A stretch of 64,000 nt of DNA from Microthyrium microscopicum (taxonomy: Eukaryota): the NCBI GenBank assembly GCA_010405405.1, contig MU004238.1, positions 569,530 to 633,529 of the forward strand, written 5' to 3'. Below the pieces are notes generated by a model. That model made no database searches. It saw only the letters and a program-made list of their open reading frames with translations, and had not been told where the DNA came from. This document shows, piece after piece, positions 30,826 to 43,364 of the stretch. A program made the position numbers and the translations under genes. How positions within the stretch are numbered: position 1 is the first letter of the stretch; each line of letters begins with the position of its first letter.

Positions 30826-33553
30826 ATGCAGTCGTATGGACATTCAAGCTCACAACAGGCATTAGCAGGCTATATCCAAGTGAACGGTGCCCGCGGCCGT
30901 CTTATCTATCTTCCCGAAAGCATACATCGAGCCATCAATCTCGAAGAAACTCCGGTTCCGCCAGTCTTCCAAGGACGATCTGTTCGACCCCATCGCATTC
31001 ATATTGCCCGAGTTGCCGGCAGTCCCTATTCCTCTAAGAAAGAAAGGAAAAGTGCTCGAAGCACTGTCTCTGTATTTTTTGGTAAACTGGCGGGCTCAAA
31101 AGGGAAGCGTTTTTTTCGCTCTTTCGTTGCCTCTCCGGAGAGTCTGAAATCAGAACCCCCTAAAGAACCACCAAAACCAGCGCCGAAACCCGACAAGCCG
31201 AAGCCTAGAAGGCCAATTTCTTGGGCGCCGGGCGCAACACCAGGGGAGCCATTGTGGCAAAGAAGACCATTACATCTACGCAGAGATCTTAGCTTCAAGC
31301 GGAGGTCAACAACAGACATAATGCGAACAAGTAATATCAGACAGTCTGTTCTGGAGCCATTTGGCAACAGTTCACTGGTTATCAATGAGGAAGCCAACCA
31401 TTCGTCTCCCAATCTACTTCCCAACACTGGTCAAAGGATACCTGATGAGAAGCCAATTGCCAGTGGAAATGGAGTTAGCATGGCTATAGCACTTGCTGAA
31501 CCAGTATTATTCTTACAGGGATTTGAGCATGGCGATCTAGCTGCAAATCGAAGCACAGCAATGCTTCGCGGAAGTCTGCACCTGAAAGTCACGAAGCCTA
31601 TCAAGATAAAGACTGTGAGCTTGAGATTCAACGGCAAGGCGATAACACGGTGGCCTGAGGGTAAGCAAACGTCTCTATTACTTTTTAAACTCCAAACGCT
31701 AACTTTACAGGCATTCCACCAAAGAAACAAGAATTCGATGAAGTCAACACTATCATGAGCCATACCTGGCCTTTTTTCAACGCCCAATTTCCCACAGCAG
31801 AACTCAGCACAGGTGCGGACCATGTCGAGCTGCAGAATAAGCAAGAACCACAAATTCAGGCCAAAAGAGGCTCGTTGGACATGAGAGATCTTCTGAGGAA
31901 AGCAAATTCCTCAAACCCCAGCCTCTCAAGGGAAGACCAGCGAGACAAGCGATTGTCTCTTCAAGTCGGTGGAGATTCGAGAAGCTTTGGAAAGGCAGAT
32001 AATTCTGGAAGCTCAAGCGTTTCCCAGAGAGGCTACAAAACATTCCAACCCGGTGACTATATCTACAATTTCGAGCTTCCTTTGGATAGTCATCTCCCGG
32101 AAACGATTGATGTCGATCTGGGTGCGGTAAAATACGAGCTGGAGGCCAGCCTAGAAAGAGCTGGCACTTTCAAAGCAAATCTATTGGGTACGAAAGAAGT
32201 AGTTGTCATCCGAACCCCTGCCGAAGGATCCCTAGAACAGGTCGAGCCTATCGCTATTTCCCGTAATTGGGACGATCAGCTTCATTATGACATTGTTATT
32301 TCTGGCAAATCATTTCCCCTAGGATCAACGATACCCATTGCTTTCAAGCTGACTCCGCTGGCCAAAGTTCATTGTCACCGAATTAAAGTCTACGTGACGG
32401 AGGCCGTGGAGTACTTTTGTGCAAATAAAAGAGTTCATAGAACGGAACCCGCGCGGAAAATATTACTTTTCGAGAAAAGGTCAGACGGGCCACCAGTCAG
32501 CACTTTCCCCGGAAGTACAATGCGCATTATCAGTGGAGGAGGAGTGCCATATGACATGAGAGCAGCTGCTGCCCGAGGTGAACCTGTGCCTGGTATTGAT
32601 CCAAACAATCTCCTTGGAAACCTAGAGAACCACGATCGAGGAATCGGTCCGACTGAGATGGAACTTAACGTCCAGTTACCGACCTGTGCCGCAATGGGTG
32701 GCATAAAAGACAAGCAATCCAAAATGCACTTTGATACGACATACTCCAATATCCGGGTGCATCACTGGATCAAGGTATAATATTTGAGCACATAGTTTAC
32801 AGCAGTCTCTAACCATTTTCCTAGATTGTTCTTCGACTATCAAAACCAGACGCAATCGATCCAAGCAAACGACGACACTTCGAGATATCCATTGACTCTC
32901 CATTCCACATTCTATCATGTCGAGCTACGCAAGCCAATACCTCTCTTCCTGCGTACTCTGGCCCCGATCCACACGCATCTCAGGGAAATCTCGCTGATTG
33001 TGGTTGCCCAGGCGCTCCACGGCGTCGATCATCACCTACATCATTCATGCCCGGTTTAGGTACCTTTGGTTCCCAATCGCCGCATCCCGGATCAGCCCGG
33101 AACTCTACCGACTTCTCACCGGATTACTCGCAGCGAGCTCCGTCACTGCAACCGCCTCCAATGGCACATTTATCGGGAGATTCATCTCCTCTTCCTCCAA
33201 ACAGTCCAACTAGCCACGCGGCTCCACGACCAATGCATATCATTCGCGCTCCATCATTTAACCCACCCGCTTTTGACGACGAAGACCCTCCACCACCACT
33301 TATGACACCCCCTCCGCAATACGACTCCATTGCGAGTCCCACCACCGGTTTATCCGACTACTTTGCGCGCCTGAGTGACGCATATGCTTCCGATACGGGC
33401 ACAGACACTGGCTCCGAGGACCTAGCCATGCTAGAAGTAGAGCCAGAAGGCATGCGCACTCCACGGCAGCGAAACAGCGTTGAGCTTGTTGGCCCTTCAG
33501 CACCACCACCCGCTGCTCCGGCTGCAGCAGGCGCAGTAGGAAGCTGGATTTAA
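30826..33553 (+). CDS. Alpha-arrestin, Rsp5/HECT adaptor (Aly1/Aly2-like); start uncertain
   Basis: ASGNGVSMAIALAEPVLFLQGF...LRGSLHLKV...WPEG|IPP, FQPGDYIYNFELP, EPIAISRNWDDQLHYDIVISGK, IRVHHWIK|IVLRLSK...FEISIDSPFHILSC, with LPAY and PPQY PY-motifs. Introns at ~31661-31710 and ~32775-32824. Alternative ATG at 31321. Confidence 0.88.
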
Positions 33554-38701: not shown

Positions 38702-40212
38702 TGTGAATGAGAACGAAAGTCGTCTTAAGTGTTCTAGGTAGGTCTTTTAGGTAGGCGATAGAGGATCCGAGTGTAGAGGTGGAAGCGGGAATCTTGGATC
38801 CAGCGTTCTCCCCAATTGTTCGACAGGAAATTGAAGTTTTATCGGCTGCATGTACGTTGCGGTCGCGCCCAGTCGCCGCTCCTAAAGGCCTATAGAGGCA
38901 AGTGAAGGAATGGAGTGATAGGTAAAAAGAGAGAATCGGTTGGGACTTGGAGAAATGTCTGGAATCGTGGAATTCACGGTAATGAAGTCGAAAACGAGGA
39001 GGAGTTGGAGGCTAAGATTTTGTGGCGGAAGGAGCGGGAGAGGCAGATATGATGAATTTGCAGTTGCATACGGTGCGTGTGGGCGAGAAGGGTAGAAGAG
39101 GAGTCACGACAGACTCAACGAGGGTATTCGACGCGTGAGAGTGAAGAGATTGAAGGTGTGTACTCGTGGTATTGGCTATGAAGGGTGTTGATAGATGGGG
39201 TGCAGTATTTCACATGCACTGAAGGGGTGCGACCGACGTGCAGGAGAAACAGCGACAATGGCGTTAAGTCGAAGGATCAGCGCGTCTGAGGAGTGGGGGC
39301 CTTGTAGATGGCGTGGAGGTCTGGCCTTGAGAAACGAGAAGTACCTGTGGGCCTTGAGGCTATTTAACAGGCGATGTAGTAGCAAAAGAAGGAGGTGGAT
39401 GAGAAATGGAGAGTAGAGAGAAAAGTGATGATGGAGAGATAGAAGAGATAGAAGAGGAGAAGGTTGAAGAAAAAGCTGAAGAAAATATCAAGATCGGAAA
39501 TGTTAAAAGGCTAATGTCTAGAGTACCAAGAATTTTACTACCATCTTAGTTGTTACCATCTCCCTGCCATGAACTACTGTTACCTCCATTCAATGCTCGT
39601 GTATATCCTTCCATCCATTGGATTCAATCAATTCATGTCCCAGGAAACCATATCCCGGTCGTTGAATGCCAAAAAGTTGCCAAGATCCCAAGCCGGAATG
39701 ATTATGCAAGTCAGCCTTTTAGTTTTCCTATCCTCCGCATCTGGATCTTCCCCATCGCTCTTTTTTCTACCGAGATCAATCGATTGAGAGCGACGCGCAT
39801 GGTCCAAGAGCAAGGACAGTGGTGTCATTGATAATAAAAGGTACTGGTACAGGGTTTCATTGTGGTCCGTGGTGTTTGCAAACAAAAAAGTTTCCCTAAA
39901 TCCTCGCACAGCCAAAAGTCAACACCGACTTTTGCCGTCTAGAGCCCTATCTCGACTTTTTAAAAGACCAGCCTATCATATCTCATCTCCCGCGGAAGCA
40001 ATGCCGTCCATAAAAAATGCACAGTGAACGTTACTGCAAGCCAATGCCCACTTATGCACCATTTCGTCATGTGCCAACAACCCCAATCCCTGTCCATCAA
40101 CAACCCTCCTGGCCCCTCGCTTAACCATCCCCATCACTATCTGATCTTAGCATCTTACTCATGGCCTGTCATGAGTGATGGGTAACTTATACGAGTCTGT
40201 CCTGTCACCAGC

Positions 40213-42144
40213 ATGGCCGAGGCATTGGCCGCACTAGGCGTCGTCGCCTCCGTCGCCCAATTAGCCGACTACGGCTTCAAACTCAGCATCAAACTATTCG
40301 CCTATGGCCAATCTGTCTACAAGGCTGACAGGGCCATCAAAAGCATCTCCAATGAAGTCTCCCTGACTTCTGCTGTGCTCCGCGAACTAGGACATGTGCT
40401 CGAGGCAGACCAGACCCACTATGTCTCTGGGCGGGCCATCGAGGCTACGCAGACGACGGTCCAGGAGTGTTTTGTGGTGTTTGATCAGTTGAATGGGATT
40501 TTGGAGAAGAGCATGGGATCTACGGGCTTTGAGAAGGAGGGTGACGTTGTTAAGATTTCGACGTTGGAGAAGTTGAAGTGGCCGTTTGTTCAGCCAAAGA
40601 TGGATTTGATGAGGGGAAATTTGGATAGGTTGAAGGCTTCTTTGACTTTGATGCTTCAAGTTTTGAGCTTTGCTCGAGATGTATCGAAACAGTCTGTTTT
40701 CTCTCTTCGCTGCTGTTGATACAATCTAACATGGAGTAGAAAGCAAGCAGACTTGTCAGCCGGGGCACAGCGAAAGCTCATTGAAAGCCTCGCCAAGTCA
40801 GAACAAGAAGCTATTGATCGATATGAGGCACTTCAACATCGGTTCGAACAATCCACTGCTGGGGCGAGAGCGCCAGGCCCAAGTCTTGGAGCTGACTCCC
40901 ATAACAACAGTCCACCTCCGCCCTACGTATCCACCAACGCACTTCCCTCAGCACCAACGGGTGATCTCGGACTTACTGGCACTGATACCTTGTCTGGATC
41001 ACAAATTGGAGAGTTGGTTCTCTCGTTAAACTTGATGAAGCATATGCTCTCCAGAGTCAGCCAAGACGTCACCCCAGCCAGCTTTTCTGCTCTCTCGGAA
41101 GAAGTGAGACTTGCAGAAATGAGTGAATCTAAACGACTTCGGCAAACTTATGGATCCAAGGCATATGAGCTACTGTTCAAGGCCGCGGAGGACGTGATCG
41201 AAGTACAATCGTATATTCAGGAGCTGGCATCTTCATATCCCCAATTGGTGCCTTCTGAATCTGTTCAACTAGGAGAAATGGTACCTTCTAGTTCTGCCGC
41301 ACCAGAGCCCAGAGCCGCTAGCACGCAAAGCATTAGCTATGACCTCGAGGAGGTTGCAATTGTTCCTCAAAGAAGATCTGGCAGAGGAGGCAGAGGGAGT
41401 ACGCGGTCACACACGGAACCACTTAAACCGGTCCCCAGGATCATTTCGGCTCCTCCGCCGCCCGAAGAGAACCCAAGTGCTGAAGATGCCAGGAAGCGCA
41501 AGGCGAAAGAGAAACGTCCCCAACAAGCTACTGTCGAGGATGAAAATGCCGACGAGGAGACTGAGGGTGATGCTAGCGCTGCAGGCATCGAATTCGAAGA
41601 AAACTATAGCGGCCTTGAAATTGATCTGGCCGATCTACCACCTTTAAGAGTCAGCCGGCCCATTGCCGCATGTCGACGGTGCCGCGATGATGGAATCAAG
41701 TGTGATGGCAAACTTCCTGCATGCTCGGCATGCGAAAGATCAGGACATGCCGACCAGTGTTTGAGGAACAACACTCAATCTGCCCCAGGCATGGAATCCG
41801 CTGTGCCTTACTCGCTCAGCGAAGAGATTGTAGTGGAACAGCCGATTACTGTCGAATACAGTGACAGTGTACCAGTTCTTGAGAGTAGCGATGAGCCTGG
41901 TGCAAGTTTACAGCGCTCGAGGACTAGGGATGACATTGTTGATGAATTGCTGGCTAGATGGACCAACTTGGACAACAACGCTATGCATATCACGGGACCT
42001 TTTGCGCCCTCGAATTGGTCTCAAGAGCATATGGGACGATCGACTGATCCAGTTGATGGTCTGAAAGTCCCAGGGTACTATCCTCCTGATGACCTAGCAG
42101 AGACTCCATCAATCAGTCCTGGTCTGTCGGATCCTTTCGAATGA
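40213..42144 (+). CDS. HeLo-like (fungal STAND N-terminal, Helo_like_N/SesA-type) protein with an internal Zn2Cys6 motif, 627 aa
   Basis: Exon 1: MAEALAALGVVASVAQLADYGFKLS...LEKLKWPF...LDRLKASLTLMLQVL. A 48-nt intron 40692-40739 (GTCTGT...CTAAC...TAG) joins exon 2 in frame. Exon 2 has C-x2-C-x6-C-x6-C-x2-C-x8-C at 41671-41760. Confidence 0.75.
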
Positions 42145-42242
42145 CATGCATCGTAAAAGACTTTGTAGTAATAGTAATACATTGAGGGGTATCTATCTCC
42201 AAACAATTCACATCAATCTCTAAATCTATGTATCATACACAT

Positions 42243-43364
42243 CTAAAAGTCCGCCGTTGAAGCAGCAAGCGAATGTTTAACCTGACCAGCCAACCGACTT
42301 CTCAACTCCTTTACATCAGCAGACGGATCCCACAATCCCCTCTCCACCGTCGCCATAATCAATTCCTCCTCATTCAACGCCGCCACCCCTTTCTGCCCCA
42401 GCAGCAAATCGTCTTGAAGCAAGTACTTCAAATACGGCTGCGCAAACCCTTCCATCGACCACCCAGGTAACATCCGATACGGAATCCACGCTGGCGTCAA
42501 CCCATGAAATTCCGCACTATACCGAAACCAAAACTCCTGCGGCATCTGATCTGTCGGGAAAATCTCCCACCTCTTCTGCACCATCTGCTGCCGTTCAAAC
42601 ACCTTCGTCCTATGCGCCTCTGCCTGGCTCGGCAACCGCACCGTATACGGCAACGCAGGCACGATACGCGTCTTCAACCCGAACATTATTAAAGGTAGAA
42701 ATTCTCCGAATACGCATAATAGGACGACGAATATAGGCACCCGTCGTAAATCGTGCATGTTTCGCCGTATCAGCTGGAACTCTGCGCGCGTCCCGTGGTG
42801 GAAGCCGGCGGGGTCTTTGCGTTTGCTGTCAGGATCGTTGCGTTCGGCCTGGCGCAGGCGCTCTTGGATGGGCTGGGCGAACTGGCGGTTGGACCAGATT
42901 GCTTTGAGGCCGGTTTTGTAGAAGGTGAAGTAGGAGCGCGCCGTGCGGAAGAGGTGGCCTGGTGTTGAGTCGTCGGCTTTGCGGACGGGGAGTTTTAGGG
43001 GTGGTGGGCGCGTGGTTGAGGGTGGATTGTATTCGTCGCTAGGGGATGTAGCGACTTGCGTTTCGGGGGTTGCCGGGGCGGGGATTGGGAGTTTGGTTTC
43101 TGAGGGTGCTGGTGGGAGGGGTTTTGATTGCTGAGATTCTGTGCTGTAGTTTTTGTATGTCTTTTGTGGTGGTCGACGTATGGATTGGCTTGGGCTTGGG
43201 GTAGCTCCTGTATGTAAACATCGTAGTGTTTGTGTGGGTTTAGATATTATGAGAGCTCTATTAATCGATATGCAGAAGCTGTTACTCGGCGATGGATGTA
43301 GACCGAGCCCCAAAAGAGGTCTCGACCGGGAAAACACGTTCATGATGCTTTGTGAAGGGTTCAT
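42243..43364 (-). CDS. LETM1/Mdm38-like mitochondrial inner-membrane protein
   Basis: R/S/L-rich presequence-like N-terminus, FYKTGLKAIW, TRAEFQLIRRNMHDLRRVPIFVVLLCVFGEFLPL, YLLQDDLLL...LNEEELIMATVERG. Start is 43364 or 43343. Confidence 0.75.
   Translation of the reverse strand: MNPSQSIMNVFSRSRPLLGLGLHPSPSNSFCISINRALIISKPTQTLRCLHTGATPSPSQSIRRPPQKTYKNYSTESQQSKPLPPAPSETKLPIPAPATPETQVATSPSDEYNPPSTTRPPPLKLPVRKADDSTPGHLFRTARSYFTFYKTGLKAIWSNRQFAQPIQERLRQAERNDPDSKRKDPAGFHHGTRAEFQLIRRNMHDLRRVPIFVVLLCVFGEFLPLIMFGLKTRIVPALPYTVRLPSQAEAHRTKVFERQQMVQKRWEIFPTDQMPQEFWFRYSAEFHGLTPAWIPYRMLPGWSMEGFAQPYLKYLLQDDLLLGQKGVAALNEEELIMATVERGLWDPSADVKELRSRLAGQVKHSLAASTADF

Follow-up and report, generated by a model that had tools for sequence, protein, structure and literature searches.

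The HeLo/HELL group of N-terminal domains is known from several kinds of fungal proteins. The HET-S and HELLP domains act on membranes, and HELL domains have been described on nucleotide-binding oligomerization domain (NOD)-like receptors (NLRs), on amyloid-controlled effectors, and together with kinase-like domains (PMC12881547). In Pfam, the HeLo-like domain that occurs in fungal NLRs and in amyloid-controlled effectors corresponds to the family PF17111 (PMC9815663), and putative integrated decoys have been proposed within the NLRs of Sordariales (PMC12258605). Here, we analyse a gene on the forward strand of a 64,000-nucleotide stretch of the Microthyrium microscopicum genome (GenBank assembly GCA_010405405.1, contig MU004238.1, positions 569,530 to 633,529; hereinafter, the window). 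Its 627-aa product, referred to below as the query protein, combines a divergent relative of PF17111 with a captured fragment of a transcription factor (TF).

In plants, NLRs with integrated domains are exemplified by RRS1-WRKY and Pik-1-HMA. By analogy with such proteins, a preliminary description of the gene, made from the sequence alone, had suggested that a captured Zn2Cys6 module serves as a sensor or decoy for a death-type domain in a protein without NOD. We identified the family from which the module originates, compared the module with its members, and surveyed the relatives of the N-terminal domain (N-domain) for other modules in the same place.

The zinc-cluster module and its donor family

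The search with exon 2 retrieved the open reading frame (ORF) of the window itself and 30 donor-family factors (P0004-P0033) with E-values from 1e-12 to 5e-9. These factors, named in the sources 'fungal-specific transcription factor domain-containing protein' and similarly, are 461-758 aa long and comprise PF00172 and PF04082, the match covering just 10-25% of the exon 2 query. In the donor factors the matching piece lies at the extreme N-terminus, with the first cysteine at residues 17-33. In P0004, for example, PF00172 occupies residues 22-57 and PF04082 residues 195-407, and the fragment listed in Table 1 is 56.7% identical to it (tblastn, E = 1.5e-18). The zinc cluster of exon 2 itself passes the PF00172 (Zn_clus) cut-off (26.4 bits, the cut-off being 21), and no match to the PF04082 middle-homology region was found by Pfam in the query protein at E <= 1. 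The identification of a donor family with the module at the N-terminus supports the proposal that the module is a captured N-terminal fragment of a conserved TF of the PF00172 + PF04082 type. No second copy of the donor factor or of the N-domain was found in the window by tblastn.

We compared the module with the 30 donors over 55 ungapped positions, comprising 12 positions before the cluster, 30 in the cluster, and 13 after it. Of these, 22 are invariant in all donors, and the query retains 21, including all six cysteines. The sole change at a donor-invariant position is the replacement of Lys by Gly (Gly478) at C2+4, which we take, from the Gal4 numbering, to be the position of Gal4 Lys18. 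The two positions preceding Gly478 are both Asp in the query, whereas the donors have Ser or Ala and Ala, respectively, and the net charge of the module is +3 compared to +5 to +7 in the donors. Lys18 provides the only side-chain contact of Gal4 to bases. In other factors, the CGG triplet is read by the equivalent residue, which is Lys, His or Asn; the contact position of Pho7 is occupied by Asn (PMC6265462). A base-contacting residue of this set, as expected of a Gal4-class factor, is hence absent from the query.

The conserved basic linker and heptad segment, which follow the cluster in the donors, are replaced in the query, and no helix after the zinc cluster was predicted by AlphaFold2 (AF2), so that the donor coiled coil is gone. 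The coiled coil is not obligatory as such, since monomeric factors, Pho7 among them, are known (PMC6265462). AF2 assigned low confidence to the module; as no row of the alignment used covered it, the exon 2 model is uninformative in this respect. Judging from the alignment with the donors, the module looks folded, yet devoid of the features that a canonical dimeric factor reading CGG requires.

Relatives carry different modules in the linker

The module is situated within a mostly disordered linker of about 230 residues. For the survey of this region we used the best 150 phmmer relatives of the N-domain and the 14 closest relatives found by a word search. The family, which is one of Pezizomycotina, has a common set of elements, namely, the helical bundle, the next helix, a loop with a PPxY motif, a helical region, a disordered basic and acidic stretch, and a C-terminal motif. 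Various guest domains are found downstream of the helical core and upstream of the C-terminal motif. The Zn_clus guest is present in five of the 150 relatives (P0042, P0094, P0113, P0124, P0169), the NF-YB histone fold in two (P0041, P0079), NF-YA in one (P0170), and ubiquitin or ULD_2 in ten. Synaptobrevin (R-SNARE) occurs in one (P0052) and in seven of the 14 closest relatives, where the coordinates were confirmed; eIF_4G1 occurs in one (P0167) and in P0196, the pieces found in these two proteins being eIF4G1 and DUF1604. SH3 and other Pfam domains were also observed in the linker slot. Neither NACHT, nor NB-ARC, nor PF04082 was found in any of the 150.

Thus, the anticipated variety of inserted domains at one position has been borne out, and it is unlikely to reflect merged models of neighbouring genes, as in 12 proteins the guest is bracketed by the N-domain and the C-terminal motif. 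The database gene models of the relatives are of mixed quality. The absence of NOD, stated in the preliminary description, extends to the whole set of relatives, as well as to the query protein, where Pfam revealed no NACHT or NB-ARC at E <= 1. Since Zn_clus is rare among the 150 relatives and PF04082 is absent from them, the query is not a widespread ordinary DNA-binding TF, which had been named initially as one of the alternatives.

The relatives bearing NF-YB or NF-YA (P0041, P0079, P0170) come from lichen-forming fungi. Among the inspected relatives with R-SNARE, only P0192 from Aulographum hederae has a long hydrophobic stretch resembling a transmembrane segment after the SNARE motif; nonetheless, it ends with the C-terminal motif of the family. 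The closest relative, P0034, is known solely as an ORF of the exon 1 length. Scanning metagenomes for its 3' part yielded four loci, of which two are cut approximately 870 nt past the N-domain and two are short forms without a guest; in the latter, L003 (1514-1560) and L004 (1391-1437), the C-terminal motifs and tails are nearly identical, and the stop codon follows eight codons after the motif.

Recurrence of TF-type guests would be expected if the query protein were a latent tethered regulator of transcription. The hydrophobic N-terminal helix would then reside at a membrane, and ubiquitination or proteolysis dependent on the PPxY motif would free the C-terminal part, which would enter the nucleus via the basic run and bind DNA or chromatin partners, comparable systems being Spt23/Mga2 and SREBP. 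The residues of the zinc fold are intact, a basic run is located 50 residues upstream of the cluster, and PPxY is retained at the equivalent loop in four of the 14 closest relatives (P0185, P0186, P0190, P0194). However, the base-contacting Lys common to all donors is replaced by Gly next to two Asp, neither the coiled coil nor PF04082 is retained, no activation domain was identified, and many guests in the family (SNARE, ubiquitin-like, eIF4G) are not parts of TFs. We regard this variant as improbable.

Phylogeny of the N-domain

A careful tree was built from 34 rows. The query, P0034, and P0190 form a group in it (support 99/94), nested within a clade of 18 rows (100/99) that consists mostly of proteins from Helotiales. 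The early branches of this clade (P0192, P0185/P0186, P0194) carry the SNARE motif. P0042, whose zinc cluster resembles the same donor family as that of the query, falls in the opposite half of the tree. A constraint joining P0042 with the query lowers the log-likelihood by 77.7 units and is rejected by the approximately unbiased (AU) test (p = 5.5e-5). The simplest reading of these data is that the linker slot may have been refilled more than once, and that this slot would have received the module of the same factor on two or more occasions, unless the module moved between paralogs.

These observations also bear on whether the module is a functionless relic, that is, a TF fragment inserted by chance in a tolerant linker and drifting there, while the protein works without it. 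The linker shows little conservation and tolerates numerous insertions, and the module is 56-67% identical to the donors, compared to the median of 78% among the donors themselves. Low AF2 confidence for the module would agree with decay, but should be read with the lack of covering rows in mind. In the sister protein P0190, which is the nearest relative of full length, a cysteine-rich stretch with six cysteines is found in the corresponding place, but its similarity to the zinc module does not reach significance (E = 4.4 in BLAST; score of 46.5 compared to 39.3 +/- 7.4 for shuffles). On the other hand, a drifting fragment would hardly keep nearly all donor-invariant positions and all cysteines, while the surrounding linker matches no relative; among the invariant positions, it is precisely the residue contacting DNA that has changed; and a module derived from this donor family is found again in a remote clade. 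A relic therefore seems doubtful to us.

The N-terminal helical bundle

AF2 predicts the N-domain to be a four-helix bundle (mean predicted local distance difference test score, pLDDT, 89.0; predicted template modelling score, pTM, 0.81; alignment of 51 rows), with helices at residues 2-34, 39-68, 73-101, and 123-155 and a short helix at residues 117-121 near the KLKWPF motif (residues 120-125). Residues 1-40, comprising the first helix, are 62% hydrophobic. These features, as well as the PPPY motif, the six cysteines, the LLARWT helix, and the lack of a P-loop, were listed in the preliminary description and are indeed present.

The search with phmmer against 1.84 billion representatives found 967 relatives of the N-domain at E <= 1e-3 and 17 at E <= 1e-30; as the representatives were clustered at 50% identity, these are counts of clusters rather than genes. 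In the first half of the best 150 relatives, 41 of the 75 proteins match PF17111 (PigL_N in the Pfam version applied here, formerly Helo_like_N) at E <= 0.01, and in the second half, 57 of the 75 match it at E <= 0.001. The PF17111 gathering cut-off is passed by 25 of the 150, for example, by P0147 (43.8 bits; E = 9.5e-18 to the query), P0066 (42 bits; E = 6.8e-26), and P0116 (40.3 bits). Several of the 150 also touch SesA (PF17107), and the neighbours of the N-domain in ESM Atlas are PF17111/SesA clusters (score 0.96).

Exon 1 had been expected to contain a HeLo-like domain. This holds in the sense of homology to relatives passing the PF17111 cut-off, and it agrees with the ESM Atlas neighbours and the AF2 bundle; as for direct Pfam matches, none to PF17111, PF17107 or PF14479 reaches the threshold. 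By sequence comparison, the N-domain is a divergent relative of PF17111, not a threshold member, and it is the homology to the cut-off-passing proteins, neither the Pfam threshold nor the fold score, that leads to this assignment.

As for the fold, the sequence search of PDB with the N-domain gave no matches at E <= 10. Structural comparison with VIA-align yielded MLKL (4btf; Z = 11.0, root-mean-square deviation of 2.2 A over 100 residues, 16% identity), the coiled-coil (CC) domain of Rx (Z = 10.8), the CC-R domain of NRG1 (9.8), MLA13 (9.2), and AtMLKL3 (8.4). The best rows in Foldseek were SPECT1 and IncA, and neither MLKL nor HET-s was among the PDB matches listed. These comparisons agree with a placement in the MLKL/CC/HeLo group, but are not decisive for this predicted structure.

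Helical extension, linker, and C-terminal motif

The bundle is followed by a further conserved helix, a disordered loop with PPPY, and a three-helix region (Table 1); residues 9-162 of P0002, spanning most of this part, match the relative P0184 (BLASTP, E = 1.8e-11). PPxY motifs are bound by WW domains of Rsp5. In the linker, the basic run may be a nuclear-localisation signal. Word-index searches, started from exon 2 as a whole or from residues 1-300 of it, retrieved solely the ORF of the window and TFs matching by the cluster.

The 13-residue helix with LLARWTNL is the sole helix confidently predicted by AF2 in the last 300 residues of the protein. An LLxxWTxL-type motif was found in 42 of the 105 relatives of at least 300 aa and, in 41 of these 42, at most 22 residues from the C-terminus. 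In the relatives, acidic runs precede the motif (alignment A2). The motif matches the WxxL pattern of Atg8 interaction and the class-3 pattern of export signals, either of which may apply. For the complex of the N-domain with the C-terminal motif, the prediction run, made without controls, gave the score of 0.00.

Gene structure and genomic setting

The two long frames of the locus, 40186-40719 and 40720-42144, form a single frame, 40186-42144, split by one TGA. A contig from run X1 (9199 nt) covers 40100-40691 and 40740-42300, omitting exactly 48 nt with GT..AG ends, and has no further joint or difference within 40100-42300. The clean in-frame intron assumed in the preliminary description is thus skipped exactly, the frame being kept. 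Run X1 was taken as RNA by guess only, and this is one compared contig of the run. A spliced message is further supported by the canonical ends and the CTAAC site of the intron, by the GTAAG donor, which two metagenome relatives (L001 and L002) have at the identical place in the codon sequence, and by the spacing over the exon junction, which agrees with that in homologous proteins; the N-terminus of the exon 1 product also agrees with the N-termini of homologs in the sequence alignment. Exons 1 and 2 constitute one spliced gene. The alternative intron 40681-40743 (63 nt, GTATCG..AG) was ruled out by the contig joint 40691|40740.

The contrary possibility is that of a gene-model artefact, with two genes or transcripts producing the exon 1 product and a separate zinc-bearing product such as P0003. 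The latter is the sole ORF call for the locus in the database, 369 aa long (41040-42144); as its first residue is an internal Met encoded in exon 2, the automatic annotation misses the bundle and the intron. This call would fit a separate product, and contigs cannot show transcript ends, but the contig joins the exons at canonical intron ends, the position of the intron is conserved in relatives, and in the relatives a single polypeptide comprises the N-domain, the helical core, and the C-terminal motif. We therefore consider an artefact highly implausible.

The X1 contig reaches approximately 5.8 kb upstream and 1.2 kb downstream of 40100-42300 and crosses neighbouring genes on both strands, which suggests dense overlapping transcription or a mixed assembly; the depth of the contig is not specific to the HeLo-like gene. 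Run X2 (organism B, an unrelated run) contains a 165-nt contig matching 41061-41225, in the disordered mid-region, with two differences; thus, a very close relative of the gene exists in another sample. Over the initial 450 nt of coding sequence, corresponding to the bundle, the third-position GC content is 0.60-0.70, and it decreases to 0.36-0.50 in the remainder; this drop may reflect a different constraint on, or a different origin of, the two parts of the gene.

Table 1. Coordinates of the gene and of the features of its product in the window
Feature	Position	Strand	Details
Exon 1	40213..40691	+	ATG at 40213; codons 1-159 and two bases of codon 160; end fixed by the contig joint 40691|40740
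Four-helix bundle, residues 1-156	40213..40680	+	divergent domain of the PF17111/HeLo-like type; predicted by AF2 and homology
Intron	40692..40739	+	48 nt, GT..AG; in-frame TGA at 40717-40719; CTAAC branch-like site at 40726-40730
Exon 2	40740..42144	+	stop codon TGA at 42142-42144
Fifth helix after the bundle, residues ~167-200	40759..40860	+	AF2 helix at P0002 6-39, pLDDT ~90; conserved in relatives
PPPY motif, residues 219-222	40915..40926	+	disordered loop
Conserved helical region, three helices, residues ~246-325	40996..41235	+	AF2 helices at P0002 85-105, 111-136, 138-164, pLDDT 70-81
Disordered linker with RKRKAKEKR (residues 411-419, 41491-41517) and an acidic stretch	41236..41628	+	pLDDT <50 and composition
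Captured TF fragment, 67 aa	41629..41829	+	homologous to residues 9-75 of the donor-family factor P0004
Zn2Cys6 six-Cys cluster, residues 471-500	41671..41760	+	C-x2-C-x6-C-x6-C-x2-C-x8-C; canonical spacing, identical to donors
Gly478 codon at C2+4 (presumed Gal4 Lys18 position)	41692..41694	+	Lys in 30/30 donors
Amphipathic helix with the LLxxWTxL motif (LLARWTNL, residues 563-570, 41947-41970)	41926..41970	+	AF2 helix at P0002 395-407, pLDDT 75-81
57-residue tail after the motif	41971..42141	+	predicted disordered; atypical for the family

The genomic setting is of the housekeeping type. The window comprises genes of DNA polymerase epsilon, eIF2B, RPC4, UTP6, Dcp2, PGAP2IP, porphobilinogen deaminase, an Nha1-type antiporter, and a LETM1-like protein, as well as ARID, SprT-like, BRCT, and arrestin-like genes. 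The arrestin-like ORF (Arrestin_N + Arrestin_C; 31689-32780) lies 8 kb upstream of the gene, with no link to it shown; fungal arrestin-related adaptors recruit Rsp5 via PPxY motifs.

Function of the protein

The query protein is not an ordinary TF. The reading which we favour, at a probability of roughly 0.4 and largely by analogy, is that the bundle acts on membranes, while the DNA-blind zinc module is a binding handle or bait, with the C-terminal helix controlling release. The bundle would be the acting part, targeting or permeabilising membranes as the HeLo/HELL domains do elsewhere; the linker with its folded zinc module would provide the handle or bait; and the module together with the C-terminal helix would decide when and where the bundle is released. 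The loss of the base-contacting Lys fits the role of a sensor or decoy without proving it.

A number of observations weigh against this interpretation. The match of exon 1 to PF17111 (E = 0.066, 13 bits) is under the gathering cut-off of 27.2. The best VIA-align match of the bundle is IncA (Z = 14.7), and designed bundles reach 10-13, so that the scores of MLKL and the CC domains fall within the range attained by helical bundles through a common arrangement. No amyloid-type C-terminal motif was recognised, by inspection only and without motif profiles. No NACHT, NB-ARC or other NLR was detected among the ORFs of at least 180 aa within the window, and the housekeeping neighbourhood differs from that of gene pairs of the het-S/nwd2 type and of typical het and NLR loci. 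As the P0190 match is not significant, the guest may not be conserved in close kin. The group for the AU test was named after the quick tree had been viewed, and the tree contains several long branches. Finally, the replacement of the contact Lys by Gly could have changed the DNA binding of the module instead of abolishing it.

Some of the same data may be accommodated if the query protein is an adaptor of a trafficking or autophagy type with SNARE-like ancestry, where the bundle is a regulatory or membrane-binding head and no cell is killed. In such an adaptor, the linker module would bind a partner or cargo, PPxY would recruit a ligase of the Rsp5 type, and the acidic run with the WxxL tail would bind Atg8 or an export or sorting factor. 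R-SNARE is found in seven of the 14 closest relatives, on the early branches of the 18-row clade, and in the other major clade (P0052); P0192 retains the hydrophobic stretch after the SNARE motif; the top fold match is the SNARE-like IncA; acidic runs precede the C-terminal motif, which agrees with the Atg8 and export patterns; and the setting is housekeeping, without an NLR. Nevertheless, the N-domain is homologous to the PF17111 heads of fungal NLRs and amyloid-controlled effectors (PMC9815663), the query protein itself has no SNARE motif according to Pfam, and the readings of the short motifs are pattern matches. We consider an adaptor unlikely; if it were true, a PF17111-type domain would work outside cell death.

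The membrane-acting bundle with a bait may be extended to the whole family, as a more specific and, in our opinion, quite unlikely proposal. In this case the relatives would be NOD-less 'tripwire' executors, in which HeLo-like bundles are wired via a disordered linker to swappable mimics of the core machinery, such as R-SNARE, NF-YB/NF-YA, the DNA-blind zinc cluster, the eIF4G piece, and ubiquitin-like domains. The LLxxWTxL helix would restrain the bundle, and a competitor toxin, mycovirus or effector attacking or binding the mimic would free it. The query would be the member baiting for something that targets one conserved zinc-cluster factor.

A fungal NLR has already been proposed to guard the t-SNARE SEC-9 (PMC12881547), and the SNARE guests deserve attention for this reason. 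The term 'decoy' is absent from the main text of the same review. The literature on PF17111, HeLo-like domains, integrated domains, and SNAREs in cell death, with the supplementary tables of PMC9815663 and PMC12258605 outside its scope, yielded no description of such an architecture and no paper combining a HeLo-like domain with Zn2Cys6 or synaptobrevin. A widespread family lacking both NOD and amyloid motifs, with interchangeable modules from core proteins, would add a new wiring scheme for the HeLo/HELL bundles, and it bears on the open question of fungal immunity, namely, what is sensed and how.

Comparison with known systems

The resemblance to MLKL is that of general plan, comprising a four-helix bundle, further helices, and a C-terminal regulatory part, putative in the query. 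MLKL has brace helices and a regulatory pseudokinase, whereas the query lacks a kinase-like domain, and, with the fold score within the range of unrelated bundles, this is a resemblance only.

With the Gal4-class Zn2Cys6 factors the query shares the spacing of cysteines and nearly all residues invariant in the donors (21/22). It differs in the location of the cluster, which is deep inside the protein instead of at residues ~17-60, in having Gly for Lys18, and in the absence of the coiled-coil linker and the middle-homology region.

The fungal 'all-in-one' NLRs combine PF17111 with NACHT or NB-ARC and repeats. The N-terminal domain of the query is of the same type, while, compared to the fungal NLRs and related signal-transduction ATPases with numerous domains (STAND), it has neither NACHT or NB-ARC, nor a GxxxxGK[ST] P-loop, nor repeats. 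The HET-S/HELLP amyloid-controlled effectors (PF14479/PF17111), too, begin with a helical bundle that belongs to the HeLo-like superfamily and has a hydrophobic first helix; as in the query, the polypeptide lacks NOD, and its C-terminal region could regulate the bundle (PMC9815663, PMC12881547). The query differs from them by having the LLxxWTxL helix in place of the amyloid motif, by the linker bearing a guest, and by the absence of an NLR gene within the 64-kb window.

Finally, as in the integrated-domain NLRs of plants, part of a host protein is built into a protein with a death-type domain, and the modules vary among paralogs and orthologs. The initial analogy therefore stands as far as variable guests derived from cellular proteins are concerned, and fails with respect to the NLR scaffold, present in the plant proteins and in the Sordariales decoys and absent here. 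Taken together with the favoured reading, the query would implement the integrated-domain logic within a single protein, operating without an NLR.

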